Assembly: GCA_965232515.1 (NCBI GenBank) | Contig: CBDDPY010000002.1 | Location: forward strand, 4,416,001 to 4,480,000 | DNA length: 64,000 nt | Source of the DNA: Alphaproteobacteria bacterium | GTDB taxonomy: Bacteria > Pseudomonadota > Alphaproteobacteria > GCA-2731375 | Direction: 5' to 3' | Shown: one piece after another, positions 25,479 to 55,273 of the stretch | Position numbering within the stretch: position 1 is the first letter of the stretch | Layout: every line of letters starts with the position of its first letter | Translations under genes and position numbers: made by a program | Notes under the pieces: generated by a model | The model's database searches: none | Seen by the model: only the letters and a program-made list of their open reading frames with translations | What the model was told of the DNA's origin: nothing

Positions 25479-26308
25479 CACCCGCCATTGCAAGATCGCG
25501 ATGCTACTCTTGCGAGCATACATCGAGCCCTCAAAAAGAACGGAGTATTTTGTTTATTGATCTGATTTTAAATTTAGTTCTAATAATATTCTACAATAAG
25601 ATATATACTAAGGTCAATATTGAAATGGAAAAATCTTCAAATTTTAAATTTTTCGCTAATCACTTAAATTTCGTAGTTCAAACTAAAAACCATATATTTT
25701 ATCTAAATATAAAATAATCGATTTTTGCTCTTTATACCTATGGTGATTTAAGAACATAATTTTCGATCAATATTTATGTGTCGAAACTTCCATTGGAAAT
25801 AATTGAATTTCAAACTTCTGATAAGAGAAGAAGGAAATAATTATATCAAAATCGATTTTGGATTGACTTCCACTGCAACTGGGCCCAACACAATGTTGGA
25901 GAATGTCGTTATCATCATAATTCGAAATTAAATTTTCTCATTTGGGATTGGTGTAGCACAAACACATCGCATCAGATGAGGCTCAGATGGAAGGTCCCGG
26001 CATCGTCGGACCACACGCCGCGCATGGAGCGCTACGGTAGGGAATTGACGTAAGGGCCACAGATTCCGGGGTCGGTTGAACTTGGTTAGTCATCGGATTG
26101 GAGGCACTCCCAACTGCGCACTATAGCCATCAACTGCAATATAGCAGAAGATCGGAGCGATAACTCGCGGAAAAGTAACAATCATCGTTTGGGATGCAAT
26201 CAAATGCAACACCGCTAAGCCGTCCAAGGCAGAATCTCATAGACCAAACTGGCACAGGTTGTTAACTTTTGTGTCCGTTCCGTGACCTTCTGCAGCCTCC
26301 TGACGACT

Positions 26309-32288: not shown

Positions 32289-32412
32289 GTGGATATCGGG
32301 GACGTTGGGGACGTTGCCCGAGGTAGCAGAACACGCCTTAGGCTGGACCATCCGCAGCGTCGATTGCTGTCGCATCCCCTGGGAGGACGTCCCCCAAATC
32401 CCCGATGTCCAC
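32289..32412. repeat. Inverted arrays of 9-bp iterons (putative origin)
   Basis: GTGGATATC GGGGACGTT GGGGACGT at 32289-32314 versus minus-strand GTGGACATC GGGGATTTG GGGGACGT at 32387-32412; 22/26 identical. Confidence 0.75.
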
Positions 32413-33741
32413 CTGCGTATCAGTGATCGGTTCGGTCGCTCTATCGACGCCGTATCGTCGATAGAGCGCAGGGAGTTTTGGCAATTCGCTCGGTGGGATG
32501 ACGAAATTGCCTTGGCTTTTGCGGGTCGAAAGCCCGAGCCGCTGGCGAACGATTGAGCCGATCGATTTAGCGCTCATGGTGCCGTAGGTTTCGCCATGTT
32601 CGGCTATGAAGGCCGATGCGATGTCTTTCATGGGCAGCACGCGTCTACCCTGTTCGTCAAGCAGGCTTTGAATGACCGCGAGGACCTCTGCCTCCATGGC
32701 GAGTGCGCGGTCTAAGCCCAGTCCGTCGCTGTACTCGCGGGCGATCCAATGCAGCTCTTCACGCATTGAGGGATCGGCGACCGCAAGAAGCGGCGCAAAT
32801 ATCTGCCGCAGACGAGGTTCGATGGACGGATCGTCGAGCAATAGGCTCGCATCGAATGTGCCGTAGTTTCGAAACCGGTAGAGCAGGAGCTTGTTGCGCA
32901 TAGCGAGCGCTTCATCCTGATAGTCGGACGGCAGACTGATCGGAATGTCGTCGCGCAACTCCCCGCCGCGCATGTCTTCCGTCAAGAAACGGCTCTCGAG
33001 CGCTCGATCGTCGTAACTCCCGCGGGTTGCAAGCACCTTCGGGCCGAACACATGAAAAGCGCGCGGGTTGAACTCGCGCTCGCGGGTGATCTCGGTACGA
33101 AGAACCGGCAAGCCGCGTACGTTGCCGTTGTTCAGGATCTTGACGATCTCTGACTTCTCATCACTGAACCGGAAGTCGCCCTCATCAAGGATTAGTGTGC
33201 CTCGAAACGCATCAAGCGTATGGAAAATCGGCGATATGGTGGATGCGCCACTTGCAAAAATCGGCTTGTAGCAAAGTGCGCCCACGGTGAGCAGAAAGCG
33301 CGTTTTGCCACTCCCGAAATCACCGCGCAGGCGCATATATGGCAGCTCGTTGAAGCAGTCGTGGACCCACGAGAGCAGCACGTAAAGACTGGTGAGTCGC
33401 TCAAAGCGAGGCGCCACGTCGACATAGCGGTGGATGTACCGTCGCACATCATCGAGGAGCGCCGACGTCGCGCCATATTCCTCCGGTCGCGAGGGTAAGA
33501 GCACAACGCGGTTTGCAATGAGGTTGTTGCTCGGTGTGTACGGGACGAAGCTAGCACCATCTGGCGCAGCAACTTCATGCTCGATACGCCAGCTGTTGCC
33601 ACTCCACACGGCGAAGCAGGTGCGCTTTTTCGTTGGATCGTAGAGGAGTTCGACGATACGACCGTCGTCGAGTACCGAGGAGACAGTTGGGCGGTGTTTG
33701 TGTGCGTCGGCAGTTTTTTGAGTTGGCTTTCTGTCAGGCAT
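32338..33741 (-). CDS. P-loop ATPase, probable replication helicase-type protein
   Basis: Walker A GDFGSGKT, Walker B LILDEGD, FGPKVLA and ALESR motifs; iterons overlap its 3' end. Confidence 0.7.
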   Translation of the reverse strand: MPDRKPTQKTADAHKHRPTVSSVLDDGRIVELLYDPTKKRTCFAVWSGNSWRIEHEVAAPDGASFVPYTPSNNLIANRVVLLPSRPEEYGATSALLDDVRRYIHRYVDVAPRFERLTSLYVLLSWVHDCFNELPYMRLRGDFGSGKTRFLLTVGALCYKPIFASGASTISPIFHTLDAFRGTLILDEGDFRFSDEKSEIVKILNNGNVRGLPVLRTEITREREFNPRAFHVFGPKVLATRGSYDDRALESRFLTEDMRGGELRDDIPISLPSDYQDEALAMRNKLLLYRFRNYGTFDASLLLDDPSIEPRLRQIFAPLLAVADPSMREELHWIAREYSDGLGLDRALAMEAEVLAVIQSLLDEQGRRVLPMKDIASAFIAEHGETYGTMSAKSIGSIVRQRLGLSTRKSQGNFVIPPSELPKLPALYRRYGVDRATEPITDTQVDIGDLGDVLPGDATAIDAADGPA

Positions 33742-33948
33742 ATGTTGCAAGCGCAACCAGGTCGCGCCGTCTGACCAGCGTACCCGACCGGTCGAAAACT
33801 GACAGAACGCACTAGACGGCGCCCATGACCTAAGCAGCCACTGCTCATCCTAGAGCGTTAAGACTAGCGCCAGCGGGAGGAATTAAGGACCGCCATGAGC
33901 CCAATCCCGCAAGCACCGTAAACCGAGCTAACTGAATGCCGATCCAGC

Positions 33949-36145: not shown

Positions 36146-37720
36146 TCAGAATGCCCCTATCGAGACCGCGTTCAGTTTGCCCGTCCCGATGTTCCTGGAT
36201 TCAAGCGCCGAGCCGCCGGCCGTGCTTCGTGCCGCCAGCACAACGTCGAGCTCCTGACCCGACGTCAGTGCGTTCTGCTGGCGAAGGCGACGGACCGTAT
36301 CGGTAATCCCGACGGTAAAGGAAGACGTCATGTCCTTATGGTGGAGTTCGCCGAAGAAGCTAACGCTGCCAGCAAAATTCGCGCTCCTCACGTCTGGCTT
36401 GATCTCCTGGCCCTTGGGACTAACGAAAATGTCGAATACCACATCGCTCGTCTGATCCGGCGGCGTGATCGTCACCGTTGCGAAGAAACGCCGATCCTCG
36501 TCGGCAGCCATGCGCTCGGCTAAACCAGTGGGTAGTGCGACGGCTGATCGCGCCGCAGTCTCAATTCCAAAAGCGACCGCGGTATTGCTGGTAGTAGCCG
36601 AGGGGGTATCGCCAGTTGCAAGTGGGACCTGTATCACGTCCTCTCCGGTTCCAGGTTCGTAATCGTAGCCAAACGACTCGACATTGAAATAATCACCTGC
36701 TGACACTAGCGACGTCGGATTGCCCGCGCGATCGTGAAAGAACAAGAACGGCTCGGCTGCGAAGACGGTGACCTGCGAGCCGTCCGGCCCGGTCGGCTGA
36801 CCTTTCACCTGCTGCTTGCGAGTCCAGACGTCCCACAAGCGATCGATGTTACAGTGATGCATGAAGAATATCGGATCAACAGGTGATAGGAAATCACCCA
36901 TAAAGCCACTGAGATCACCGTGAACAAGGTTATGCGGCTGATCTTCCAAGATCGCGTAGTCCCCGGCGAACCCGTGATGACTTGTCGTCACTGCAGTCTC
37001 GAACGCGTGACTCCCATCTGTCTCGACGTAGCGTTCCGGCGCCAGAAGATCTTTGATTACAGGCTCCTTCACGGCCAGATCAGCGAACACCAGTTCCGGG
37101 TTTCTCTGCGTTGGCCGTCTCGTTTGGCCCTGTGGAAAGAAAACGGATTCGGCGTCATTCCAAAGTGCCTGGAAGTTCGGATAGCGACGGACCGTCTGCT
37201 GTGCGCGCTGGCCAGGCGAGAGACCGTCCCAGTAGGCCTCGAGCGCGGGCCGAAACTGGTCCCGGAATGTCGCGACATCGGGCACGAAAGCCGAATTGTT
37301 GGGATCGAGCACGTCGTCCCAGAAGGCCGCGGGAACTGCCGGCTCTTTGGTCCAGTCCCAGAACGGCAGCGCGAAATCGTTCACTCCAGTGAGCTCACGA
37401 CATATCTGCTCGATCCAACCAAGGTAGCCACGGTGCCAAACCAGAAACCACCAATTGCCGTGGGGACAATCCATCAGATGCGTGAACGCGTAGCGGTACC
37501 AGTTGCGTGGATCGGTCGGCGGCAACTCGAGCATGGCCTTGACCGCCGTCTTGTAGGTCGCAAGATCTTTCGCGACGTTAGGCCCCTGGAGGCTCTTGCG
37601 CGTGTGTTTGGCTGCCGAATAGGCGAACGTATTCGGAAAGCTGACTGCCAAGCTGGCCGCGGCGCTCGTGGTCAGGAAGCCACGCCGAGACAGTCGGCCA
37701 AATTGCCCTGTGGATCGCAT
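36146..37720 (-). CDS. Tat-exported tyrosinase with C-terminal domain
   Basis: SRRGFL Tat motif; CuA H..DCPHGNWWFLVWHR; CuB PHNLVH...DPIFFMHHCNIDRLW. Confidence 0.93.
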   Translation of the reverse strand: MRSTGQFGRLSRRGFLTTSAAASLAVSFPNTFAYSAAKHTRKSLQGPNVAKDLATYKTAVKAMLELPPTDPRNWYRYAFTHLMDCPHGNWWFLVWHRGYLGWIEQICRELTGVNDFALPFWDWTKEPAVPAAFWDDVLDPNNSAFVPDVATFRDQFRPALEAYWDGLSPGQRAQQTVRRYPNFQALWNDAESVFFPQGQTRRPTQRNPELVFADLAVKEPVIKDLLAPERYVETDGSHAFETAVTTSHHGFAGDYAILEDQPHNLVHGDLSGFMGDFLSPVDPIFFMHHCNIDRLWDVWTRKQQVKGQPTGPDGSQVTVFAAEPFLFFHDRAGNPTSLVSAGDYFNVESFGYDYEPGTGEDVIQVPLATGDTPSATTSNTAVAFGIETAARSAVALPTGLAERMAADEDRRFFATVTITPPDQTSDVVFDIFVSPKGQEIKPDVRSANFAGSVSFFGELHHKDMTSSFTVGITDTVRRLRQQNALTSGQELDVVLAARSTAGGSALESRNIGTGKLNAVSIGAF

Positions 37721-38268: not shown

Positions 38269-40359
38269 TTAGCGATGCGTAGCTACAATGCCGCCCTTGC
38301 CGTCGGGCAGGGCGATGCGCACGTTCTGCATCATGCCTCGGTCCTCGTGGTCGAGGATGTGACAGTGCAGGACGAAGTCTCCAATGTACCGCCGGTAGTG
38401 CATGCGGACGCGGATGCGATACGGCGTTCGCGTCGCGCCGCGGCGCTCTTGAGTCACGAACAACGTGTCCTTCCAGGTTCCCTTGAGCCGCGCGTAGGGC
38501 GACGTGTTGTCGGGCTCGTAGCCGCTGACATCCCTTCCGTCAGCGTCCAAGATCTCGACGATCTGAAACGGGTTGACATGTATGTGGAAAGGATGGCCAC
38601 CCAGAAAGGAGCGCAGTTCCCAGTCGTCGATGTTGCCGAGGATGAGGTTGCGATCGATGCGATCGGGGTCGTAGGACTGTGGGTCCTTGAGGCCCCCCTG
38701 CGCGTTCAGCGCGCCGATCTGAAAAACCGGGCCATTGGGGCCGCCACGTATCACGAAGCCGAGTGTATGCTCGAGTTGGGGACTGCGCGCCAGCAAGGAA
38801 TCGTGCGGCTGAAAGGCCGCCAAGCCTAGCCGCTGCTCGAGATCGGCTACGATGCGATCATGCAGGTCGACAGGCATGAAAAGGCGTGCCGCTTCGATCA
38901 ATCGTTGTTTGATGTATTCCGCCGGCGTGGCATTGCCGATTCCGGCGCCAGGCCCCACCTCGACGAAGCCCATGAGCTTTCGACTCTTGGTCTCCTGAGC
39001 GACTGTGTCGACGTCGACCGCATCGGCATCAACGATGCAGTAGGTTCCGGGCTCGGGAAACACCATAAGCAGGTCCTCTCGGTAGCCCGGATGCATATGG
39101 CTCTTGTCTTGCGTGACCAGTCGGTCGCGTGTCAGGCCGTCCGTGGCAAGCGAGAGCTGCTGTGCTGTTGCGCCGCTGCAATTGGCATCCACGAAGGCAG
39201 ATTGCGCATCGGACGTCACGGCAGTGTAAGCTGTTGCCGAAGCCACAACCGTGGAGGGTGCAGACAGCTTCTTGAATTCCAGCGTGATCGAATCGCGCAC
39301 GCCGGCGTGTATCAGTCGCCATCGTTCGATTTGCCCGGCAATCGAAGTATTGAAGGTTGGAACGACGCGGCCATTGATGCTGGTGTACCGGCCCGAGGAG
39401 CTCCATAGCCCAGGGCCGAACTGATCGTACCGCTCGATCGTTCCGACCTCACCTGGATCGCAGATCCACGTACCGGCCGCATCGGTCTTTATCGGGCCGC
39501 CCTCGATTTCTCGACATGCATAAGGAATCTGCTGAAACAGCAAGACACGTTCCGGGATGGCCGTGCCGTCGGCATTCCTCAGCAGTGTATCCACATCACC
39601 GGTGCCGTCCGCTGTCGGCAGTCGGTCGCCGCGAATGATCAGGGCGCCTGCCATTCCGCTGGATACCTGAAGCGCCGTGGAACCATGCAGATGCGGGTGG
39701 TACCAGAACGTGCCTGCAGGATGGTCCGCGGGGATGTTGTACTCGTACGTGAAGCTGACGTTTGGCAGAATTCGGATCAATACATTGTCGGAATTGCCTG
39801 AGGGATTCACCCAGAGGCCATGAGTGTGCATGTTCGTTGAGTTAAAGCAGTGGGGCGTGTTGACGTCTCCACCTCCCTGACAAGAACGATCGTTAGCGGG
39901 CAGTTTGTTGTTGAGTGTAAGACGAAACGTTTCGCCCGGCCGCAGGTTCACTGTAGGTGCCACGAAAGGCACATTCAGATCGACGCCGTCTCCCTGGTAC
40001 GACCGTAGTCTTACCTTGTCGAACTGACCCGTTCTGGGATTGAAGATCTGCCCTTCTGTGTAGCGGATATCGACGTTCCAGGCGACTTCGCCGCCCCTTG
40101 CTTCCAGCCCGGTCGCCTTCGGTGCAGCAACACTAGCCAGCTCTGCGTCGAGTCGCCGGGCTGCCGCCAATGGTATAAGTCGGGCGCTCGACGGATTGCC
40201 AATGGCCACGTCGGCCGGATGCACATTTTCTGCGACTGCTGACCCGCAAAATCCGGTCATGACGATACCGACCACAATGCCAAGCCGCGTGCTTGATCGT
40301 CTCGGTGGCCTCCGGCCATCGCGCACTGAAGCATATACTGGTAGCAGTTTCACCGACAT
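38269..40359 (-). CDS. Exported multicopper oxidase (laccase-like)
   Basis: All four Cu motifs present: HTHG, WYHPHLHG, HPFHIH, HCHILDHEDRGMM; N-terminal signal. Confidence 0.94.
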   Translation of the reverse strand: MSVKLLPVYASVRDGRRPPRRSSTRLGIVVGIVMTGFCGSAVAENVHPADVAIGNPSSARLIPLAAARRLDAELASVAAPKATGLEARGGEVAWNVDIRYTEGQIFNPRTGQFDKVRLRSYQGDGVDLNVPFVAPTVNLRPGETFRLTLNNKLPANDRSCQGGGDVNTPHCFNSTNMHTHGLWVNPSGNSDNVLIRILPNVSFTYEYNIPADHPAGTFWYHPHLHGSTALQVSSGMAGALIIRGDRLPTADGTGDVDTLLRNADGTAIPERVLLFQQIPYACREIEGGPIKTDAAGTWICDPGEVGTIERYDQFGPGLWSSSGRYTSINGRVVPTFNTSIAGQIERWRLIHAGVRDSITLEFKKLSAPSTVVASATAYTAVTSDAQSAFVDANCSGATAQQLSLATDGLTRDRLVTQDKSHMHPGYREDLLMVFPEPGTYCIVDADAVDVDTVAQETKSRKLMGFVEVGPGAGIGNATPAEYIKQRLIEAARLFMPVDLHDRIVADLEQRLGLAAFQPHDSLLARSPQLEHTLGFVIRGGPNGPVFQIGALNAQGGLKDPQSYDPDRIDRNLILGNIDDWELRSFLGGHPFHIHVNPFQIVEILDADGRDVSGYEPDNTSPYARLKGTWKDTLFVTQERRGATRTPYRIRVRMHYRRYIGDFVLHCHILDHEDRGMMQNVRIALPDGKGGIVATHR

Positions 40360-41054: not shown

Positions 41055-44000
41055 CTAAGCCAGAGCGACGCCGACGTGGTCGAGCGCGCCGTTTTCCCGC
41101 ATCGACTGCACGATCGCCTGTATGGAGGTGCCAAATGATCTGCGGCGCTCGGTGCCCTGGTGCAGGGCGACGATATTCATGTCGGCGTCGAAGCAAGGTG
41201 CCCCCGCCAAGCCCGGTGCCGTGTCGGCGTTATAGAAAATTCGCGTCTCTGCCTGGTCGATTTCAGTGATACCGCGGCTGGCAAAAGTGACATGCAAGGG
41301 GTTTCCGTTCGAGTGATGCAAAATCAGCAGCTGTTTATAGACGCGCGGTTGGCCGAGGCTGCCCATCAGGTCGAACCAGTGACGTCGCGACAGCTCCATT
41401 GATGCTCCGAACTCAGGTAAGGTCTCCATTTCCAGGACCGGCTCGTCGCCGGGGTGGCCGTCAACACGCACAAGCAGATAGGCAAGGTGCCACCGGTCGC
41501 TCGCATCGTCGTCGTTGTGTCTGGAGACGTCGACGAACGAGTAATCCTGACCCTTGAATGTGTGTCGATCCGTACCTCCGTCCGCTCTGATATCGAACAC
41601 GAACTCCAGGTCGTTCGCCCGCGAAAAATCAGACAGATGCTGGATCGCAGCGTGAGACGTGAACACTAGATCAGGCCCGACGAGTAGGCCCGTGGCAACT
41701 GGTTCTCCTCGAACGTCGATACGGCAGAGCTGTCTGGCGACAGCGGCGACTTTAGACTGCAGCTCTTCCTGAGAGAGCATGCTCGACAACTGTGCCATTC
41801 GCTCCAGCTCCTTCTGCTGATAGCGAACGACACCGGTCTCCAACTCGTTCGCGATCCTGAGTAGCTCGCCGTCTGATGGCCGGAGCTGTGCCGCCATGTC
41901 GACTAGATTTTCGAGCCAACCTTCTTGATTGGCCATCTGCAGTAGCCCGAAGACCTGTACAGGCGGGGGATTGTTTAGCGATACGATCGATTCCAGGCTT
42001 CGACCCGTGGCGAAAACCAGCAGCCGCAGTTCGTCGAGCGAAAATGCCCGGACGAAGATGCTGCTTATGTCAGTCAAGCGCCGGCCGCGGCCAACTGCCC
42101 GGCTCCACCAGCTGCGAACTGTATGCATTGGCTCAGTCGTTTGCGCGCGCTTGGATCGCGGCTGCGTCTTGCGTAACTCACCAACTGCAACCTCGAGAAA
42201 CTTGTTGGCATGGGCTAGACCGAATTTCGAGAACGCGTCGTTCAGCACGACTGGCACTAGGGTCATCAAACCAACGAACAGCCCCTGCCAGGTGGCGTTC
42301 AGGGACTGTTGCGGAGAAATCGACACGGACCGGGCGACTACCCCGGGCTTCTCGCCCTGCGACTCGGACACCTTCTGGTCGTACTCGCTCATGGCGCGTC
42401 CAAGTCGCCGGCGTCCGGGTTCGGACACTGCTTCGAGTACACCACCCCTAATGCCGGCCAGAACGACCCTCGGCTCGTCGGCCCCGATGCCAATGATCGC
42501 CCGCTTGACGAGATCGGCGTGCGTCGTGAGTTGCTCGTCGGACATCACAAACACCGCCTCCGCAAGCCTGTCACTGTTTACCGATAGGATCTTTTCGTCC
42601 TTTAGCTCGGAGGCCCATTCGAACTTGAGTAGCGCGATCTCGAGCGATTTACGCACATCCTCGCGATCGACGGCGATCCGCTGCGCCTGAGACAATAAGC
42701 CGCGTGCCTCATCGTAGTCACCCAGCTCGTAGGCGACTTTGGCCGAGATGAGTTGCAACGCGACCCGATAGCCGCTTGCCGCCGTTGACGGCAGGGACGC
42801 AAGGCCGCGACTGGCGACAGCCCCAGCCTCTTCCGGTTCCCCGGTCTTGAGCAGCAGTTCGGCCTCGTCGACATATAGCCAGCTGCCTGCCGATCGATCT
42901 TTACGCTCGCGTAGGATCTGCAGCCTTTTTTCGGGCGAGGCCTCCTCCTTCGCCCGCCTTCTGGCATCGGATTCCCAGGTCGCCAGAGACGCGGCGCGGC
43001 GCAGCTCCCTCGGCACGTCCTCACCCATGAGTGATAAGAACAGTGCCTTGCTCTGCAGCGGCAACTCCTCTTCTACGCCCGCCAGATACTGGTCAATCCC
43101 GGCTACGTTCCATCGATCGCGAACCGACTGCTCGTCGTCCCCACGGGCCAGCCGGTGATAGATCTCCTCTGCCCGTAGCCGCGGTCTCTCTTGATCGTCC
43201 GAATGGTCCGAGGCCGTGGTGTAGTAGTCGATCGCCTGGTCGAGGACCTCACCGAGCCTGTCCACGTCCAGGTCCCGCATTAGATCGAGTAGCGCCTGTC
43301 GGACTTCCGGTCTCGGGTAGATCTCTGCAGCGTCCTCATGGTTCGCCGAGAACAGATCGATCGCACTCCGCAGCTTCTCGAACAGTTCCAGTCCGGCCGC
43401 ATCGCTGAGAACGCCCGTATCCAGAGACGGGGCCAGCACTTTACTGACGATGTCGGCGTCAATTACCCGAAGCAGCAGCGCCGGTCCGGCGACGCCTTGC
43501 ACGTCCTTGTCCTCGATATGATCGAGGTAGCGCGTGATCAGCTGGTTCTGGATGCGCCCGGCCTGCAACTCGGACCAGAACTGCTCGTCCAGGGCCGCCG
43601 TTCCCTGTTCCTGGCGTTGCTTCCAAACCGCCACAGCCACCCTGAGGGTCAGGGGACTCACACCAGCGTCGTCTTCGTCCATGCGGCGTGCCACCCGACC
43701 AGCCAGATCGGAGGGAAAGCCGCCGTCGGAGAGATATTCGACGGCGAACTTCCGTTTCAGGCCCTTGAGCTCCAGCTTGTCGGTCTTTAGGTCGAATTCC
43801 GCCAGCGCGTAGCTGTCCTCGTCCGGATTCCTGCCGATCGGTGCACGGCCCGCAATGATGAGACGTAGATAGGGATGGGTCTCCTGCAAGCTGTCCACGA
43901 ATCGCCAGAATGCCGAAATCGACTCGCGGTCGCTGAATCGCGCCTTTTCGAAGGTATCGAGGAACAAGAGATAAGGCCTTTCACTGAGGGAATTCGCCTC

Positions 44001-45017
44001 AAGCATCTTGGCGAACTCTCTGACCATGTGCGGCAGCAATTCCAGCATCACGGTTTGTCGCTGTCGCTCGGCCGAGAGTCCGCCAAGCGCGGCCGTCCTT
44101 GTCGACTGCATGACGGCTGCCCGCCATGATTGTCGCAGGCCCGAGAACGTCGGACCGAAATCCGGATACTGAATCTCTAGCTGGCGCAGGGCCTCGTACA
44201 GGATAGCGTGCGGTTGCTGTGGTGAGAGCTTCGTCCGGTCGAAATCAATGTAAGTGAACGGTAGCCGGCCCTCGTCGAGCGCCCGGGCATGGTCGAGTAT
44301 GAACCTGGCGATTAGGGTTGACTTGCCCATGCCGCCCGGGCCGAACAGCATGATAGGTGGCTTCTCGTGCAGGCTGAACACTTGGCGGAACGTCCTGGAG
44401 ATCAATTCCGTGACGGAACTGGTTTCCTGCACGCCCACGTAGTCGGCGAGACTGGCCAGTTCCTCGACCCGTCCCTTGAAGTTCTCCCCAGCAAGATCGT
44501 GAAACGGCTTAAGAAAATTGAGTATGGCGATGCGTTTCTTGATCACCTCCATTGCCGGCATGCCGTCGGTGCTCTCCGAAAACAACTGCCGAACGCTCCA
44601 CAACTCCGACAGCTGTCCGAGATCGTCGCTGTCGGTGGTCAACGCACCGTCGACGATATCCCCAATGGTCTTGCCGAGGGGATCGGCGCGGCTCGAGCCG
44701 ACGGAGTCGAGCGTATGCTGGATCTTGTCCACAGAGTCCAGCTGCTTCAGGACGCTCTTCCGCGTCGAAGGTCGCAGGCTCCAACGTTGCGTCTGCCCTT
44801 CGTAGACTGGTCGCGACAGATCCAGCAGCTCGTTCACCTCGCTCGGGTCGGCCGGACTAAGCTCATCAACCGAAAAGCTCGACAACACTGCCGCGCGCTC
44901 GAACATCGCGCTGAACTTCGGCTCGCCGTACTTGTTGGGCTCGAAGGCACGGCTCTCGCTCAGCTTCCTTGCAGCCGCCTGAAGGATCCTGCGACGATCG
45001 ATGCCAGCAGTACTCAT
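41055..45017 (-). CDS. STAND-type NTPase - helical/TPR region - EAD1 - inactive trypsin-like domain
   Basis: FKGRVEEL, GPGGMGKST, LLFLDTFE, IIAGR and SPLTL motifs; EAD1 (RAFSLDELRLL...QEGWLENLV..RP); trypsin fold with triad changed to Ala. Confidence 0.85.
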   Translation of the reverse strand: MSTAGIDRRRILQAAARKLSESRAFEPNKYGEPKFSAMFERAAVLSSFSVDELSPADPSEVNELLDLSRPVYEGQTQRWSLRPSTRKSVLKQLDSVDKIQHTLDSVGSSRADPLGKTIGDIVDGALTTDSDDLGQLSELWSVRQLFSESTDGMPAMEVIKKRIAILNFLKPFHDLAGENFKGRVEELASLADYVGVQETSSVTELISRTFRQVFSLHEKPPIMLFGPGGMGKSTLIARFILDHARALDEGRLPFTYIDFDRTKLSPQQPHAILYEALRQLEIQYPDFGPTFSGLRQSWRAAVMQSTRTAALGGLSAERQRQTVMLELLPHMVREFAKMLEANSLSERPYLLFLDTFEKARFSDRESISAFWRFVDSLQETHPYLRLIIAGRAPIGRNPDEDSYALAEFDLKTDKLELKGLKRKFAVEYLSDGGFPSDLAGRVARRMDEDDAGVSPLTLRVAVAVWKQRQEQGTAALDEQFWSELQAGRIQNQLITRYLDHIEDKDVQGVAGPALLLRVIDADIVSKVLAPSLDTGVLSDAAGLELFEKLRSAIDLFSANHEDAAEIYPRPEVRQALLDLMRDLDVDRLGEVLDQAIDYYTTASDHSDDQERPRLRAEEIYHRLARGDDEQSVRDRWNVAGIDQYLAGVEEELPLQSKALFLSLMGEDVPRELRRAASLATWESDARRRAKEEASPEKRLQILRERKDRSAGSWLYVDEAELLLKTGEPEEAGAVASRGLASLPSTAASGYRVALQLISAKVAYELGDYDEARGLLSQAQRIAVDREDVRKSLEIALLKFEWASELKDEKILSVNSDRLAEAVFVMSDEQLTTHADLVKRAIIGIGADEPRVVLAGIRGGVLEAVSEPGRRRLGRAMSEYDQKVSESQGEKPGVVARSVSISPQQSLNATWQGLFVGLMTLVPVVLNDAFSKFGLAHANKFLEVAVGELRKTQPRSKRAQTTEPMHTVRSWWSRAVGRGRRLTDISSIFVRAFSLDELRLLVFATGRSLESIVSLNNPPPVQVFGLLQMANQEGWLENLVDMAAQLRPSDGELLRIANELETGVVRYQQKELERMAQLSSMLSQEELQSKVAAVARQLCRIDVRGEPVATGLLVGPDLVFTSHAAIQHLSDFSRANDLEFVFDIRADGGTDRHTFKGQDYSFVDVSRHNDDDASDRWHLAYLLVRVDGHPGDEPVLEMETLPEFGASMELSRRHWFDLMGSLGQPRVYKQLLILHHSNGNPLHVTFASRGITEIDQAETRIFYNADTAPGLAGAPCFDADMNIVALHQGTERRRSFGTSIQAIVQSMRENGALDHVGVALA

Positions 45018-46147: not shown

Positions 46148-47269
46148 TCACTCACAGGGCCGGTTCAGCAGGTCGAGTTTGCCGCGCTTCTGCAGTAGGG
46201 CCCGTATAGCCTTGAACGGAACGAACTGGTTGTAGATAGCTGCGCGGCCCAGATCGGGATCGGTACCGTTGTGCAGGCCGACTAGCTTCCACCGGATATC
46301 GAAGCACGGTGCGCCCGAGGATCCTCCCAGCGTCGCGGTTCGGTGTCTTACCCTAGTGTCGTTGGGGTTGCGTTCGATCACCGATTTCGTGCGGTGGGCG
46401 ACTTTCACGACGCCACCTGCTGGGTGCTGCACGATGGTAATCGGCGCATCCTCACCCGGAATCAGAGGATTCGCTTCCAGGTCTATCCAGCCGCGCCGGC
46501 TGTTGGCCGTCGCGGCCTCGTCGGTGCCCGCCTTGCTCTGCACCGGTAGGCATCCGACCGGCGTGTCCAGCCGTAGTAGTGCGTAGTCCAATTCCTCGTC
46601 ACTGGTCGCCGGCGCATTATCGCTCGCGATCAGGTCCCTGGCGCTGGAGGGCGCGTGATCGAGCAGCGGCTCGGCGGCGAGCTTATGTGTGACGCCCTCA
46701 TTCAGGGTGATGCCGTCCTCGTTCAGTTTGTAGTCGAACCTGACATTTACGTCGAAAAAAACGGCTGCCGTAGGGGGCTTGACGATCTTCTCGATCACGT
46801 GGAAGTTCGTCATGACGATATCCGGTCCCAACAAAAAACCGGTTCCGTTGACCGTGTTGCCGGAGTTCGTCTTGTAGTTAATTTGGCAAACCTTCTTTAT
46901 CAAACCGCCCACCACTGCCCAGTCGAGCAGGCTTCCTTCGTCCTTGTAGAAGCGCTCCAGCGCCTGTCGATCCTCGCTTTCCATGCTGAGGCCAAGTCCA
47001 AGGTCGGCAATCAGCTTCGCGAAGTTCGCGTAACCAGGGCGCGCCTCAGAGCAGGCCAGCACTAGATCGTCCAGCCAGCCGGTCATCTCGGCGTTTTCAA
47101 TGACGGCCTGCACCATGACCGACATCGCGTCCGACGAGGTTATCGTGTTGAGCCTCCTATCCAGGCGTCGTCGCAGCATTAACGAAAGGCTGTCCTCGGT
47201 GAACAGATCAACCAAGCCGTCGTGCAACAGTGTGAACTGCGGGCCTTTTAGCTGGACATAGGCAGTCAT
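46148..47269 (-). CDS. EAD1 plus trypsin-like serine protease (intact triad)
   Basis: EAD1 LKGPQF...AEMTGWLDDLV..RP; TNFHV, LDYALL, TLGGSSGAP and VGLH motifs. Confidence 0.88.
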   Translation of the reverse strand: MTAYVQLKGPQFTLLHDGLVDLFTEDSLSLMLRRRLDRRLNTITSSDAMSVMVQAVIENAEMTGWLDDLVLACSEARPGYANFAKLIADLGLGLSMESEDRQALERFYKDEGSLLDWAVVGGLIKKVCQINYKTNSGNTVNGTGFLLGPDIVMTNFHVIEKIVKPPTAAVFFDVNVRFDYKLNEDGITLNEGVTHKLAAEPLLDHAPSSARDLIASDNAPATSDEELDYALLRLDTPVGCLPVQSKAGTDEAATANSRRGWIDLEANPLIPGEDAPITIVQHPAGGVVKVAHRTKSVIERNPNDTRVRHRTATLGGSSGAPCFDIRWKLVGLHNGTDPDLGRAAIYNQFVPFKAIRALLQKRGKLDLLNRPCE

Positions 47270-48792: not shown

Positions 48793-50346
48793 ATGCGCTA
48801 TTCGTCGCTCGCACTGGTTTTCGCCCTATTCTCGGGAGAGGTTTTCGCCTCGGACTCGCCTGCTCCGGAACTTAGTATCGTCAACGCCGGCAGCGGCGGC
48901 TTCTCGTTGAGCCGGTCGATCAGTCGTTTTGAACACGCATTTATCATCGAGTCGAAGAACAAGTCCGGCGTCGCTGACCTGCATATCGAAGTTCCTGACT
49001 TTGTGGGGCCGGACGGTGTGATCGCCGAGACCAAAGTCACGGTCGACGGGAAACCGCTGACGGCAAAGGACCGATTTTCCATCGAAGGGCTGAACGACCT
49101 ACGCTTGACAGTCTCCGCGGCGCTGACGCAGTCCGGCGGCTACGAGACGTCGATCACTCTCATTTATGGAGAGACGCGAAAATCGACACCCATCAAGGTA
49201 AGCCGTACGCGAAACCCACTCGACCTTGCCATCGAGAGCGCCGGCACCGCCGTCGGCAGCACGTGGACGATAAGACCTGCAAGCGTTGACCTTTGGCTAA
49301 CGGTCGTGGTGGGTGGCCGCACGGTCGTACTGGAGAAACCTGCTATTCGAAATCTGACTCGCAAGAGCGGCAGCGACGACTTGAGTGCAGATTTTGCAGG
49401 TCTGCGGTTTGCGCTGTCCGATCAATCCAGTCCCGTCTGGCCGATGGCACTGGATCCAGCTTCCGCGCAGAGCATCAGAGTAACGGTCGATGGCCTCACG
49501 TCGCCAGGCACATACCAGGGGACTCTAATCTTCCCGTCTCGAGATCATACAGCCGCCGAAGCATCATTCAGCTTGAATATCCGCCGGGCCTGGTTTGAAG
49601 CCGCCGCTGTCATTGCCTTCGGTTTGCTCGTTTCGCTCGGCTTGCGGCATTTGCAGGAGAACGTTCAGCCCAGGCTGCGCCAGCAGGTCGATGTACTGAA
49701 CCTCCTTGTGAGGCTCAGGCGCTCACTGGCGCAGGAGCGTCAGTTGACGAAGGAAGACCAGGACCTGATAACCGCCGTGGAAGATCGACTCTCCCAACTC
49801 TATGCCGACCTGCGCGTCACCGGTATCGAGCAAGCCGATGACATCGTCGACGAGATTGCGGCGAAGCTGCCGCTCATCCCCACATGGATCAACATCAATG
49901 TCGAAATCCGCACGCTGCCGGAGGAAAAGCGTCGACCTCTGCATAAGGAGTTGATGGAGATCGGACAGGTCATCTCGGAGGAGGGCACAAGCACGGACCA
50001 GATCAAGTCCGCATCTGCTCAGTTGAATAGCCTAAAGGCGAAGGTTGCCGCTGCCGCTAAGCAATCGGCCGCAGAATCGGTGGGCGATCTGCCAATGGAG
50101 CAGATCGAACTGGAGAAGCTCTCCGCCCTCGCCCGGGTCAAACGCAGCGAAATCACATTCAACCTTGCGATACTGGGCATTGCGATCGTATTGGGCCTGT
50201 ATCTGCTCTGGTCGTCGAACTCGACCTGGGGGACGCCAGGGGACCTGTTCGTCGCGTTCCTCTGGGGTCTTGGCTTGCATACAATAACCGCAAAACAGAA
50301 GTTCGAAGGCCTAGGAGATCTCGCTGGCCGCTTTAGCAAGCCCTGA
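48793..50346 (+). CDS. Membrane protein: signal peptide, beta-rich ectodomain, TM, helical bundle, C-terminal TM pair
   Basis: Hydropathy pattern read from the translation. Confidence 0.8.
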   Translation: MRYSSLALVFALFSGEVFASDSPAPELSIVNAGSGGFSLSRSISRFEHAFIIESKNKSGVADLHIEVPDFVGPDGVIAETKVTVDGKPLTAKDRFSIEGLNDLRLTVSAALTQSGGYETSITLIYGETRKSTPIKVSRTRNPLDLAIESAGTAVGSTWTIRPASVDLWLTVVVGGRTVVLEKPAIRNLTRKSGSDDLSADFAGLRFALSDQSSPVWPMALDPASAQSIRVTVDGLTSPGTYQGTLIFPSRDHTAAEASFSLNIRRAWFEAAAVIAFGLLVSLGLRHLQENVQPRLRQQVDVLNLLVRLRRSLAQERQLTKEDQDLITAVEDRLSQLYADLRVTGIEQADDIVDEIAAKLPLIPTWININVEIRTLPEEKRRPLHKELMEIGQVISEEGTSTDQIKSASAQLNSLKAKVAAAAKQSAAESVGDLPMEQIELEKLSALARVKRSEITFNLAILGIAIVLGLYLLWSSNSTWGTPGDLFVAFLWGLGLHTITAKQKFEGLGDLAGRFSKP

Positions 50347-50667: not shown

Positions 50668-50940
50668 CTATAGAGCCGAAGTCACCTTCAGAACGACTAC
50701 ATCACCCAGATCGTCACCAGAGGTGTCGATCTCCATTTGTCCATAGCGTTCCCCTTCGGCATTTGCACCAATCACGAATTTGCCCTCGGGCAGGCACAGT
50801 TGCACAAATCCACCACTGTCAGCGGCAAGAGCGATCTCGGGGAAGGCGACGCTGCTACGCACGACCGAGACGAAGGCACCCTCCATGGGCACCCCCATCT
50901 CATTCACAATTCGGAAAAGGACAAGCTTTCCATTACTCAT
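50668..50940 (-). CDS. Small carboxypeptidase-regulatory-like (transthyretin-fold) protein
   Basis: IVNEMGVPMEGAFV...ADSGGF..LPEGKF pattern; 4-nt overlap with the protease gene. Confidence 0.75.
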   Translation of the reverse strand: MSNGKLVLFRIVNEMGVPMEGAFVSVVRSSVAFPEIALAADSGGFVQLCLPEGKFVIGANAEGERYGQMEIDTSGDDLGDVVVLKVTSAL

Positions 50941-51866
50941 CCGTGGTTGTTAGCTGTGTTGTCCGTGCTGATCCAGTCGGTAATTTGATCAAACACCTCC
51001 GGAATAATTCTCGGCGCGGAGTTTGCTGTTATGCCAAGGCTGAATGGTGTGCCGCCCGTCCCGTAGGCGTGGATAGCGACCACTACTGGCGGACCGTCTG
51101 TCTTCTCATGAATCCAAACCGGAGCCCCCGACTGCCCGCCAAATGTGTCGATGTCGTAAAAGACACGCCGCTCCGTGACATGCAAGACCCGATTGGCATG
51201 GAAGTATTGCTGACGACCGCCGCCGCGGTCGGCTGGATAGCCGCTGATATTGACCAGATGACTCTCCAGGTCCGACGGTGGAATGGTAGCGAAGCCGAAA
51301 AACCCGGTTTGCTCGCCTAGGGGTTCGTCTAGATGAATGCAGCCAATATCGAAATCTGGATCGGCGTCATTGACCCAACGATCGAGCGAAGAGAAGCGTG
51401 TGGCCACTGCCGTAGCGAAGGGAAAATCATCCTCGTCGCGTCCCGCACTGATTTCGATACGCTCGGCCCAACCGCCAAAAAAACCCTGGTGGTGTACGCA
51501 ATGGCCGGCCGTAACAATGGTTTGAGGTCCGGCCATCCAACCTGTGCCGATTGCACCCCCACCTCCAGGACCTATCAAACGCAGCGCACAGATCATTCGC
51601 CATGGATGCAGTTCGGTTTCCAACACGCGTTGGCGATCATCTAAGCCAATGACGCTCTCGAGTGCGCCGCCGCCAGGCGCAAAGCGGGGCTCGATTCGGC
51701 TTTCGCTTTTGCCGACGCGACGAAAAGCTCGCAGGGCGCGGGAATCGCCCTGCGGGGCCGACCCGGATTCACCAGCGTGGTCCTTTCGATCAGATGCTGC
51801 CGTGGCCGTTACGCTTTCTAGCGCCGCTTCGGCTACCGGCTTATGGACAGTATTCAATTTCACCAT
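50937..51866 (-). CDS. V8/glutamyl endopeptidase-like serine protease
   Basis: LESVIGLDDR, TAGHCV, DFDIG, DTFGGQSGAP and AIH motifs; GGAGG RBS; no signal peptide. Confidence 0.92.
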   Translation of the reverse strand: MVKLNTVHKPVAEAALESVTATAASDRKDHAGESGSAPQGDSRALRAFRRVGKSESRIEPRFAPGGGALESVIGLDDRQRVLETELHPWRMICALRLIGPGGGGAIGTGWMAGPQTIVTAGHCVHHQGFFGGWAERIEISAGRDEDDFPFATAVATRFSSLDRWVNDADPDFDIGCIHLDEPLGEQTGFFGFATIPPSDLESHLVNISGYPADRGGGRQQYFHANRVLHVTERRVFYDIDTFGGQSGAPVWIHEKTDGPPVVVAIHAYGTGGTPFSLGITANSAPRIIPEVFDQITDWISTDNTANNHG

Positions 51867-51961
51867 AGGACTCTCCTCCATTCTGCGGTTTCATGGAAGC
51901 ATGGGGATGATCTTATTGGCGTAAGCTCGGGATCCGATGCTTTCGGAACTGCTGTCCACAA

Positions 51962-52885
51962 CTAAGATGTGACATTGTCGATCGCCGCCGCAAATAGTCC
52001 GCTGATGGTGGCGTAGCCAGCATCTGTCGGATGCAGTTCGTCGTACCACTCGTCGTCGGGAACCGCGCCGCGACAATCGATGTAAATGACCTTCTCTGGA
52101 AACTCCGCGGCAAGATCGGCAAGCGCCAAGTTTAAGCGATCGACAATGACTCGGATAATGTCGCGCTGCAGTGCACTGTCCTTGATCCCAAGTTCCTCCA
52201 TCGGAGCCCCAAGCCAGCGGCCCGAATCGGGGATGGCGTGGTCATAGCCCTGGCACAGAGCCTTGAGCGCCGGAAACGGTTCCGTTACGCGGCGAAACAA
52301 TTCGCGATAGAGTTGAACGATTCCCGTCAAGAACGGCGCAAAGTTCTCGTTCAGATATGCCTCTGCAGGGCGGTCCGGCTCGAAGGAGCGCAGATAGGTC
52401 TTGAGGTTGCCGCCACCGAGAAGGTCGTTTCCACCGCCGCTTATCAAGAACAGCTCTGCCTGTTCGCGTTCGATGGACCGCACCATCTCCCTCTGCTGCA
52501 ACATGTCCTGCAGCAGATCGCCGGCCGCGCCGAGGCTGAATATGGCGTAGCGTTCGAAGAGATGATCGACCACATCGTCAAGTAAGAGTGGAAATTGGAA
52601 CCAGGAATCGCCTTCGGACACGATCCTCAGTAGAGACTGGTCCTCTTGGATGCGCCGGCGATACCGAATCTGCCGCCGCCAGCGGGAAATCCCATTGAGC
52701 GATCCGAGCAGGAGGGCCGCCTCCTCGGGCCCTTCCTTCACCGCTTCGCGCCTTACGATGATTTGCGGCGCGAACGCGCGAGACTCGCCTTCGTTGACCT
52801 CAACAAAGGGCCGGAGATTCTTCTCTGGCACAGCCGGATCGAGAAGCATTCTCTCCAGTTCCCTGACTGAAATCTTTTCTGTCAT
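51962..52885 (-). CDS. SGNH/GDSL hydrolase
   Basis: EGDSWF, SGGGND and DELHPT motifs. Confidence 0.88.
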   Translation of the reverse strand: MTEKISVRELERMLLDPAVPEKNLRPFVEVNEGESRAFAPQIIVRREAVKEGPEEAALLLGSLNGISRWRRQIRYRRRIQEDQSLLRIVSEGDSWFQFPLLLDDVVDHLFERYAIFSLGAAGDLLQDMLQQREMVRSIEREQAELFLISGGGNDLLGGGNLKTYLRSFEPDRPAEAYLNENFAPFLTGIVQLYRELFRRVTEPFPALKALCQGYDHAIPDSGRWLGAPMEELGIKDSALQRDIIRVIVDRLNLALADLAAEFPEKVIYIDCRGAVPDDEWYDELHPTDAGYATISGLFAAAIDNVTS

Positions 52886-53361: not shown

Positions 53362-54981
53362 TCAGCAATTGACGGTACTGGTGCCTGCATCCTCAATTTC
53401 GACCCGAGTGTCCTCTAATAGAATGCGGAAATCCGAAATCAAACGGTTCCAATATTTGTACACGAGGTGGACCATTCGGGACTTTGAGCCTCTCGAAGTC
53501 CATATCAGCTCGTAACAGAGCCCTGTTTTCGCGGTTCCAAACCCTGTTTCCCGAGAGTGTGGTATCCCCTCCGGAAAGATCACCTTCTCGAACCATCGGC
53601 GTTGCGCTACCGGCAGGGTGTGCCAATTGCGGGGGTAGCTCTCGATCCGTTTCGCCGTCTTCTTCGCTACAGTTGGCAGATCGTATTGAACTGCCTCTGC
53701 CCGCTCGGCGCTTTGCCGGATTTCACTGATAGACTCGCCGATCGCCTGCTTGCGTGACAGGAACTCTTCGTCTGTCAGGAGGCCCTGGGCTCTCATGTCG
53801 ATGAGCATATCCAGTCTGCTCTCCAGTTCAGAGAGGCGCTTGGCACTTGATCGGCTTGCTTGCATCGCTGCGCTTTGTCGATAGTCCCAGACGTGTTGAA
53901 CGGCTTCCACAAAGACATTGAGCATGGCGCCCGTCGGCGTGTGCTTTAGGACCAGGTCGGTGAATTCGGCTTCTAGCCGTTTCTTCGGCACGCCCTTGCC
54001 GTAAGCCGGGCATCGCGTCTTGGCGCAATGGTAGTAGGCGTAGCGGCCTCCATTCCCGCGTGACCAGCTACCCGTTAGGGGTCCGCGACAGGATGCACAG
54101 CGCACGGTGCGTCGCAGCGGGAAATCTGGATGCTCGGCGGCTCGGCGCATCTTGGGACGCGGCTTGCCGGAGCGCAGGTGCTGAACCTGCTCGAACTCCA
54201 CCGCGGTGAGCATGGCCTTGTGCTTTGCGGCGAACTCTTCGCCGGTCCAGGGATTTGCGATGATGCCGGCATAAAACTTGTTGCACAGGATGCGGTCGAC
54301 CTGCTGGTTGTAGAGCCGCTTGCCGTTGAGCGTGCGCAGGCCCCACTCGTTTCCGAGCCGGGCAAGCTCCGCTGTGCTACAGATTCCCTCGTCGAGGCAG
54401 GTGCGGAAAAGGCGCTGGACGAGCGCGAAGCGTTCAGGATCTGGCTGGTCTGGTGCAAGCTTCTTGAGACCCTGGGCGCGACTTCGACCGCAGAGATAGC
54501 CGAGCGGCGGCTGCCAGGGGTAGATGCCGGCCTCGATCTTTGCAGCCATGCCCCGGATGACGCGTTCGCGCCGGATGCAATTATCGATTTCGGCCTGTAG
54601 GGCCGTGAAGGTCTCGTAAACGCGGCTTGAGAGCGAGTCCCGGTCGTCGAGGGATGTCTCAGTGGCGGAATGGATGGCGATGCCTTGCTCGCTCAGTGTC
54701 CGCTTGATGTAGTAGTAGTCCATTTGGTTCCGGCTCAACCGGTCCAGCTTCCAGACGATGAGGGCGTCGATCTTGCGCCTGCGAGCAGCGCAGTGCCGCA
54801 TGAGCTCCTGCAGCTGGGGCCGGTCGGCGAATTTTGCGCTCTCTCCTCTCTCCTCGAACATCGCGACGACGGCCATGCCCTTGTTGTTGGCATAGCGAAG
54901 ACAGTCCTCGCGCTGAAAGTCGAGCGAGGTTCCCTCCACCTGCTCGTCTGAGCTGACTCGGGTGTAGATGATTGCGTTCAT
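53362..54981 (-). CDS. Large serine recombinase (second)
   Basis: YTRVSSDEQ, GESAK, KLDRLSRN, PPLGY and CASC...YYHC...C motifs, coiled coil. Confidence 0.95.
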   Translation of the reverse strand: MNAIIYTRVSSDEQVEGTSLDFQREDCLRYANNKGMAVVAMFEERGESAKFADRPQLQELMRHCAARRRKIDALIVWKLDRLSRNQMDYYYIKRTLSEQGIAIHSATETSLDDRDSLSSRVYETFTALQAEIDNCIRRERVIRGMAAKIEAGIYPWQPPLGYLCGRSRAQGLKKLAPDQPDPERFALVQRLFRTCLDEGICSTAELARLGNEWGLRTLNGKRLYNQQVDRILCNKFYAGIIANPWTGEEFAAKHKAMLTAVEFEQVQHLRSGKPRPKMRRAAEHPDFPLRRTVRCASCRGPLTGSWSRGNGGRYAYYHCAKTRCPAYGKGVPKKRLEAEFTDLVLKHTPTGAMLNVFVEAVQHVWDYRQSAAMQASRSSAKRLSELESRLDMLIDMRAQGLLTDEEFLSRKQAIGESISEIRQSAERAEAVQYDLPTVAKKTAKRIESYPRNWHTLPVAQRRWFEKVIFPEGIPHSRETGFGTAKTGLCYELIWTSRGSKSRMVHLVYKYWNRLISDFRILLEDTRVEIEDAGTSTVNC

Positions 54982-55021
54982 AGGATTAGTGAGGACGTTC
55001 GGAGGGCGCGCGTTAGCAGCG

Positions 55022-55273
55022 TCAGTTGCCCTCAAAGTCCCTGGGATCATTATACGTCCACTCGCCGCGCAGTTCCAATTCCCACAGCTCAATCGCAAGT
55101 TCGGCCAGTTCGTAGGCCGCTCTGCGGAACTCCTCCGCGTCGGTGTCCGACATGTCAGGCAGCCCGGCAAGCTCACGCACACGGTCGAGCGAAAGCAGGG
55201 TCATTTGCGGCGGCGTAGCCGTGCCATCCATTCGAGCTGTAGGCAAATCCTTGGATCGTTTGCTCGTGGTCAT
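55022..55273 (-). CDS. Small helical protein upstream of the recombinase
   Basis: LLSLDRVRELAGLPDMSDTDAEEFRRAAYELAELAIELW; start uncertain. Confidence 0.6.
   Translation of the reverse strand: MTTSKRSKDLPTARMDGTATPPQMTLLSLDRVRELAGLPDMSDTDAEEFRRAAYELAELAIELWELELRGEWTYNDPRDFEGN

Follow-up and report, generated by a model that had tools for sequence, protein, structure and literature searches.

A putative pseudoprotease domain behind an EAD1 adaptor in a STAND-type NTPase from an alphaproteobacterial genome

The operon and the domain order of P0001

The DNA analyzed here is a 64,000-nucleotide stretch (the window) from an Alphaproteobacteria bacterium (GenBank assembly GCA_965232515.1, contig CBDDPY010000002.1, positions 4,416,001 to 4,480,000). 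It contains four genes arranged head to tail on the minus strand, P0004, P0002, P0003, and P0001 (Table 1). The first two gaps measure 19 and 6 nt, and the P0003 stop overlaps the P0001 start by 4 nt. The last gene, P0001, encodes a STAND-type nucleoside triphosphatase (NTPase) that ends in an EAD1 adaptor and a trypsin-fold domain. An earlier note, made from the sequence of this DNA, had described that terminal domain as a pseudoprotease with all three catalytic residues replaced by Ala. Four EAD1 copies were found in a scan of the genome, three of them in this operon. As the EAD1 of P0001 scores above the curated cut-off and a second copy is present on an adjoining effector gene, the operon is predicted to encode an EAD1-coupled system.

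Table 1. Coordinates of the operon genes, the domains of P0001, and the three substituted catalytic positions
Feature	Position in window	Strand	Evidence or remark
P0004, trypsin-like protease without EAD1, 468 aa	47289-48695	minus	First gene; Trypsin_2, 52.5 bits
P0002, active-type EAD1-trypsin, 373 aa from ATG	46148-47269 (to 47362)	minus	Triad intact; EAD1, 54.8 bits; Trypsin_2, 55.3 bits
P0003, EAD1 and small P-loop NTPase, 375 aa	45014-46141	minus	EAD1, residues 1-83 (28.8 bits); NPHP3_N, residues 112-275 (26.6 bits)
P0001, STAND-type NTPase, 1320 aa	41055-45017	minus	Open reading frame and translation; frame intact
P0001 N-terminal domain, residues 1-205	44403-45017	minus	Conserved in family; mostly helical with one beta-hairpin
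P0001 P-loop NTPase core, residues 207-373	43899-44399	minus	Pfam AAA_16, 33.7 bits (cut-off, 32.6)
P0001 EAD1 adaptor, residues 983-1059	41841-42071	minus	Pfam PF19955, E = 2.8e-7, 31.4 bits (cut-off, 24.2)
P0001 trypsin-fold pseudoprotease domain, envelope 1108-1285 (fold to ~1300)	41163-41696	minus	Pfam Trypsin_2, AlphaFold2, Foldseek
Ala1123, catalytic His column	41649-41651	minus	Codon GCT
Ala1179, catalytic Asp column	41481-41483	minus	Codon GCC
Ala1271, catalytic Ser column	41205-41207	minus	Codon GCG

From its N terminus, P0001 consists of a conserved domain, a P-loop NTPase, a helical or TPR-like region, EAD1, and the trypsin-fold domain. The P-loop carries a Walker A motif (GPGGMGKS) and a Walker B-type motif (LDTFE) and is followed by a helical/repeat sensor region, which identifies P0001 as an NLR-like STAND NTPase. 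Residues G228, G229, G231, K232, S233, D354, T355, and E357 of these motifs show no or almost no variation in A1, which aligns 31 full-length family members with 19 to 35% (most 25 to 35%) identity to P0001. Matches to NACHT, nSTAND6, and TPR families were weak and under their Pfam cut-offs, the TPR-type matches lying at approximately residues 710 to 790. The N-terminal domain was modeled with a confident fold by AlphaFold2 (AF2; pLDDT, 86.5; pTM, 0.72). It had no PDB match by Foldseek at E <= 0.001 and showed no recognized effector fold, and the best score in an Atlas search (0.76) is a lead that names no fold. Apart from its tail, no other effector is evident in P0001.

The trypsin-fold domain scores 18.9 bits with Trypsin_2, under the Pfam cut-off of 27.6, and is absent from the precomputed domain list of the protein, so that an architecture of EAD1 followed by a dead trypsin is easily overlooked. 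Nevertheless, an AF2 model of the EAD1 and protease unit, built on a 78-row alignment, reached a pLDDT of 90 and a pTM of 0.88. A Foldseek search with this model returned the chymotrypsin fold, with the Glu-specific S1B proteases Esp and V8, HtrA, and FAM111A as the top matches (E of ~1e-10). Likewise, the profile of the family alignment of this unit (A2) matched V8 glutamyl endopeptidase in the PDB at an E of 1.8e-13 and, further down, a chain of the anti-sigma sensor RsgI9 (7sjy; E, 3e-4). By fold and by sequence homology, the domain has the chymotrypsin fold (PA clan, S1-type).

Loss of the catalytic triad and retention of the fold

Residues 1020 to 1290 of P0001 align with residues 82 to 368 of the neighboring EAD1-trypsin P0002 (BLASTP; E, 4e-21; 26% identity over 292 columns), a similarity far beyond chance. 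At the columns where P0002 carries TNFHVI (His), LDYALL (Asp), and GGSSGAP (Ser), P0001 has Ala in place of each catalytic residue. The earlier note had read the same alignment and the same three replacements in an intact frame; mapping by script returned exactly those codons, and the frame of 41055 to 45017 is open throughout. The turn around the nucleophile column has the sequence G-L-A-G-A-P, and neither this column nor its neighbors hold a Ser, Thr, or Cys. As the His-Asp-Ser (HDS) triad is lacking, the domain is, judged by its sequence, a non-peptidase homologue, i.e., a pseudoprotease. H1122, adjacent to the His column, was considered as a shifted catalytic His and rejected from the alignment: it falls at the x of TNxHV, a variable column where active relatives have Y, F, or H. 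The possibility raised beforehand that an adjacent His rebuilds a catalytic site is thus not borne out by the alignment.

Homologues were collected in a HMMER pass over 1.84 billion representative sequences, which gave 2168 matches at E <= 0.001, and the best 150 of these were aligned and examined. Among these 150, the triad was degenerate in 34 of the 40 proteins of at least 1000 aa, which are NTPase fusions; two had a gap and four read HDS. The proportions were reversed among the 78 proteins of at most 400 aa (HDS in 62, degenerate in 14, gap in 2), and the degenerate short proteins include several fragments. P0006, P0007, and P0009, the nearest relatives, are fragments as well (79, 58, and 53% identity by HMMER; 71, 58, and 52% in alignment A4), and their triad columns read A/G/-, T/G/A, and -/-/A, respectively. 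In P0005, a full-length homologue that is 25% identical, the triad columns read S/G/E, and the C terminus ends in GVALA like that of P0001. In P0006 (171 aa), a later domain segment precedes an earlier one, which looks like an assembly or circular-permutation artifact of a short contig.

Loss of the triad is therefore conserved on the homologue alignment, and none of the nearest relatives has an intact triad. The intact frame, the closest relatives and P0005 without a triad, the degenerate triads of most NTPase-fused homologues, and a degree of conservation like that of the NTPase core all argue against decay, as the earlier note had done, and strain-specific decay is excluded by these sequence comparisons.

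The fold has been retained where the catalytic residues have not. Across 53 fused domains, the catalytic His, Asp, and Ser are present in 36, 37, and 40% of the sequences, respectively; in 101 stand-alone proteins with the triad intact, the figure is 100%. Columns that define the fold are conserved at 91 to 100% in the same fused domains (L1112, F1141, G1156, R1212, and G1272 at 100%; H1286 at 91%). Mean pairwise identity within the NTPase family is 0.385 for the NTPase core, 0.353 for the pseudoprotease domain, 0.308 for EAD1, and 0.224 for the TPR-like region, and of the 9 columns that do not vary at all in A1, 5 belong to the pseudoprotease domain. These column and region comparisons were used in place of dN/dS, because no DNA of close relatives was found in two metagenome scans (queried with the single protein and with alignment A4, respectively); relatives with 52 to 79% identity exist as protein fragments alone, and the retrieved loci are too divergent (protein distance of ~0.8 or more).

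All eight patterns of keeping or losing His, Asp, and Ser are present among the 53 fused domains, 18 of which have lost all three residues and 5 of which have kept all three. Ala at the Asp column was found only in P0001; Gly is common at this column, as is Ala at the Ser column. The triple-Ala state is therefore idiosyncratic, one state among many. As different lineages have lost different residues, in all combinations, selection on catalysis appears to have been relaxed while the fold was retained. The sequences indicate that catalysis became dispensable and drifted and that the fold probably stayed under selection. The earlier note had preferred selected inactivation; the eight patterns and the five HDS domains fit relaxed selection and provide no evidence that the loss itself was selected.

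It had also been noted that the putative S1 residues, a Thr and a His, are kept. This holds for T1266 and H1286 themselves, the former being retained in 79% of the 53 fused domains, but not for the columns around them: N1294 falls from 98% in active paralogues to 23% in fused domains and H1287 from 80% to 26%, and G1289 and Q1234 are also lower.

A quick maximum-likelihood tree of 168 EAD1-trypsin units placed 38 of the 51 fused rows in one 49-row group, which includes the dead domain of the window (two further rows, relabeled as fused after the tree was built, make up the 53 used elsewhere). P0002 grouped with stand-alone proteins (98% SH-aLRT support with P0107). The dead domain thus appears to be an old paralogue of the stand-alone EAD1-trypsins and not a recent duplicate of P0002.

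Genomic context and possible roles of the domain

A search with A1 identified 337 relatives among one-per-species genomes, spanning Acidobacteriota, Actinomycetota, Chloroflexota, Bacteroidota, Myxococcota, and Pseudomonadota. The best 80 of these 337 loci were kept, their stop-to-stop open reading frames (ORFs) were scanned with hidden Markov models built from 63 intact stand-alone proteins and from A1, and 82 NTPase ORFs outside the window were classed by the type of C terminus in the same ORF. Thirteen ended in EAD1 and trypsin, with a degenerate triad in 12 and HDS in 1 (L010). An intact stand-alone EAD1-trypsin was present in 12 of these 13 loci, the 13th (L074) lying at a contig edge, and an EAD1-only ORF equivalent to P0003 was likewise present in 12 of 13. 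Another 13 ended in a trypsin without detected EAD1. Twelve of these, all Streptomyces-type, read HDS and have a second intact non-EAD trypsin adjoining; the remaining one (L016) reads DPA, has an EAD1-trypsin neighbor, and was counted neither with the dead EAD1 fusions nor with the 12 HDS fusions. Three NTPases ended in EAD1 only, with no fused trypsin, and two of them have an intact EAD1-trypsin in the locus. The remaining class, with neither EAD1 nor trypsin, comprised 52 ORFs, 23 of them beside an EAD1-trypsin. Hence, a dead triad goes with EAD1 in cis and a live EAD1-trypsin in trans, while direct fusions remain live.

Some loci differed in detail. One Thermoanaerobaculia contig (L011) carries two complete three-gene modules in tandem, and one of its NTPases has the order EAD1-pseudotrypsin-EAD1. 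Two ORFs (L003:10815-12641 and L046:10911-12533) have 200 to 260 additional residues after the pseudoprotease. The Streptomyces-type live fusions (L047, L051, L058, L060, L062-L064, L070-L073, and L081) are a natural control for the live state.

Given the homology, the fold, the loss of the triad, the family-wide retention of the domain, and its co-occurrence with an intact EAD1-trypsin, we see about an even chance that the C-terminal 340 residues of P0001 form one compact EAD1 and trypsin-fold unit that has lost catalysis and is kept under purifying selection for a noncatalytic job, namely, partner docking or regulation. The most likely role would be that of a docking or regulatory partner for an active protease recruited in trans; binding itself and the direction of regulation are what we infer from these observations. 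The earlier note had suggested that the dead domain could be a scaffold, could allosterically activate or restrain its active paralogue, or could act as a decoy. In such a scheme, the helical/TPR region would sense a signal and the NTPase would oligomerize in an NTP-dependent manner, clustering the EAD1-pseudoprotease units. Homotypic EAD1 contacts could then recruit the active EAD1-trypsin and the EAD1-NTPase, and the dead domain, cleaving nothing itself, may serve as a docking or regulatory partner of the same shape that templates or gates assembly of the active protease. Since the module is dispensable in many relatives, it would modulate the system and not define it.

Several points weigh against this interpretation. 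It is genomic context that favors a partner role, and the rows counted come from related sequences and lack independence, with all 12 of the HDS fusions without EAD1 being Streptomyces-type. More than half of the NTPase ORFs (52 of 82) have neither EAD1 nor trypsin in cis, including those beside an EAD1-trypsin. Triad calls were taken from automatic alignments of divergent sequences and stop-to-stop ORFs, and with 5 of 53 fused domains reading HDS, some family members may be active. The tree was a quick search with weakly supported deep branches. A comparison of EAD1 and protease domains for hints of co-evolution gave a mixed result and lends no support: cognate EAD1 pairs were not consistently more alike than noncognate ones, and the pair in the window ranked 15 of 39. 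For only 6 of the 13 EAD1 domains in fused proteins did 5 or fewer of the 38 to 39 noncognate partners match the similarity of the cognate one. Furthermore, unlike caspases, trypsin-fold proteases are generally active without dimerization. A complex prediction of P0002 (373 aa, A3) with the EAD1-pseudoprotease unit (346 aa, A2) gave a score of 0.00 (mark, 0.32) and speaks neither for nor against binding.

In animals, cFLIP(L) consists of an adaptor and a pseudo-protease paralogue and acts alongside procaspase-8, an active protease with the same adaptor. The P0001 and P0002 pair shares this logic, an adaptor with a dead paralogue beside an adaptor with a live protease, although it is built from a trypsin fold and not a caspase and from EAD1 and not a DED; the likeness is one of analogy, and what is known here is the architecture. 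It is possible, if doubtful, that the operon is a bacterial counterpart of cFLIP/caspase-8 logic made from unrelated parts, in which the dead copy would co-assemble with the live EAD1-trypsin and set its activation threshold. If so, the rule that EAD1 fusions are dead and direct fusions live would mark a repeated route from a cis effector to a trans effector with a pseudoenzyme regulator in cis.

Among the alternatives, the best surviving is a sensor role, in which the dead protease would detect a ligand or peptide: its cleft would bind a phage or host peptide, possibly one that contains an acidic residue, and signal to the NTPase instead of binding the active protease. We consider this unlikely. 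In the profile match, the retained T1266 and H1286 line up with the V8-type motif at its Thr and its His, and we take their equivalents to be the S1 determinants of Glu-specific S1B proteases. The profile match to 7sjy points in the same direction, presumably as RsgI9 has a protease-like sensor domain. The position at the C-terminal end is, moreover, the usual one for STAND sensors, and "merely peptide-binding domains" are among the readings that Kaur et al. (Kaur, Burroughs, Iyer, and Aravind, 2020, eLife, PMC7159879) offered for inactive trypsin domains. However, the cleft columns that are near-invariant in active paralogues (N1294, H1287, G1289, and Q1234) are the ones lost in the fused domains, and EAD1, the adaptor that recruits effectors, always comes before the domain. 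In addition, the active trypsin found at the same C-terminal position in relatives (12 of 12 HDS) marks this as the effector end.

Somewhat less probable still is a dominant-negative brake, in which the dead copy would occupy the EAD1 or protease interface of the active EAD1-trypsin at rest until the NTPase is triggered, or, as a variant, a decoy for phage protease inhibitors. The genomic context fits these ideas as it fits docking, the tight coupling of the operon would suit a restraint, and a dominant-negative effect has been raised for the inactive trypsin domains of vWA-MoxR systems (PMC7159879). The data do not separate restraint from activation, and many related systems run without the domain; for a decoy, there is neither a candidate inhibitor nor a sign of fast-evolving surface positions.

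There is only a slim chance that the domain is what remains of a fused effector in an ancestor, kept only to stabilize the fold or the packing of EAD1 at the C terminus and having no specific molecular partner. The pTM of the AF2 model suggests that EAD1 and the protease fold may be packed as one unit, the catalytic residues drift in all combinations, and many relatives lack the domain. Against this stand its conservation, which is on par with that of the NTPase core and above that of EAD1 and the TPR-like part, and its share of the invariant A1 columns; where EAD1-only C termini exist (3 ORFs), one would expect a simple spacer to have become shorter or disappeared. Finally, residual hydrolase activity through noncanonical residues such as H1122 is very unlikely, as the fit of H1122 next to the His column and the conservation of H1286 are outweighed by the Ala at the Asp and nucleophile columns, the lack of a Ser, Thr, or Cys beside the latter, the variable column in which H1122 lies, and the variation of close relatives at these positions.

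Comparison with known systems

EADs have been proposed as homotypic coupling adaptors (PMC7159879), and in EAD-coupled STAND systems described by the Aravind group (PMC7159879, PMC8195603, and PMC10907252) the same EAD is present on the NTPase and on a neighboring trypsin-like peptidase, with predicted homotypic recruitment. The NTPase in those descriptions carries the adaptor only, whereas P0001 carries, behind the adaptor, a copy of the effector fold that is dead. Published conflict systems of bacteria also include inactive trypsin domains: in vWA-MoxR ternary systems, Kaur et al. reported inactive trypsin and caspase domains in the effector position and proposed them as dominant-negative regulators or peptide binders. 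Those systems have in common with the operon a conflict or immunity setting, trypsin-fold domains without catalytic residues, and the use of EAD adaptors. In contrast, the carrier here is an active-type P-loop STAND NTPase and not a vWA protein, and the dead domain follows EAD1 and is paired with an intact EAD1-trypsin paralogue in the same operon. No MoxR or vWA family was detected in the four operon proteins and ten neighbors scanned, so the operon is not of the vWA-MoxR type.

STAND-fused trypsin-like proteases have been described as oligomers that cleave latent effectors, and in this work on Avs-type proteases the catalytic-serine mutant S151A abolished toxicity (bioRxiv 10.1101/2025.11.14.688446). 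The Avs2/Avs4-type systems and P0001 share a STAND NTPase, a trypsin fold, and an anti-phage type operon, with oligomers forming upon activation in the former. Protease catalysis is required there, whereas the fused copy here is unable to catalyze and a separate gene encodes the active one. No MBL, Pepco, or EACC1-type substrate gene was recognized in the operon by Pfam or PADLOC. The solved folds and profile matches nearest to the domain are the S1B glutamyl endopeptidases V8 and Esp and the staphylococcal Spl and exfoliative proteases, which are ~13% identical to it and share both the Thr and the His of the C-terminal V8-type motif. These are secreted active enzymes, while the domain here is a cytoplasmic fused domain without a triad.

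In the literature searched, as far as its text was available, no description of EAD1 with a dead trypsin on a STAND NTPase was found, although the source data of PMC7159879 may list it, and no characterization of this widespread family was found. Given the precedent of Kaur et al., what is new here is the dead effector copy behind the adaptor. The family-level pattern should be useful, and the concept, its function being deduced from sequence, would be moderately and not highly surprising to a specialist. In animals, pseudoenzymes that regulate active paralogues have a central place in cell-death and immune signaling; for bacterial immunity, worked examples are few. The family also provides a natural three-way comparison between NTPases with a direct live trypsin, with EAD1 only, and with EAD1 and a dead trypsin. 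A live EAD1-trypsin gene is usually found with the latter two classes, so what the dead copy does can be tested directly.

Genomic setting of the operon

The first gene of the operon, P0004, carries the motifs TNRHV, LDLALL, and GGNSGS and matches the PADLOC model PDLC03010 ("nacht") at an E of 8.8e-34. Non-EAD trypsin genes like P0004 follow the NTPase in many related loci (e.g., L014, L019, L024, and L033). A promoter and terminator scan gave counts no higher than in shuffled sequence.

The operon appears to lie on an acquired island, because the GC content drops from ~0.67 to 0.70 over the first 24 kb (1 to 24 kb) to 0.46 to 0.62 from 24 kb to the window end, large serine recombinase genes are present at 23925-25523 and 53362-55182 (both minus strand), and a search with P0001 found it in none of 60 other genomes (32 of the same family and 28 of the same class). 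Overall, the segment from 24000 to 64000 looks like an integrated mobile island that carries the operon. It also encodes a protein with ParB_N and sigma-70 region 4 at 55338-57212 (minus strand).

Directly downstream of the NTPase gene, on the minus strand, are genes for a two-domain multicopper oxidase (38269-40359) and a tyrosinase (36146-37720). A 517-aa ORF at 48793-50346 (plus strand), divergent from the start of the operon, had no match in Pfam, PADLOC, or NCBIfam, and a 472-aa ORF at 32338-33756 (minus strand) had none in a Pfam scan, the only one applied to it. Outside the operon, at 50937-52885 (minus strand), a 314-aa Trypsin_2/Trypsin protein adjoins a GDSL lipase-like protein.

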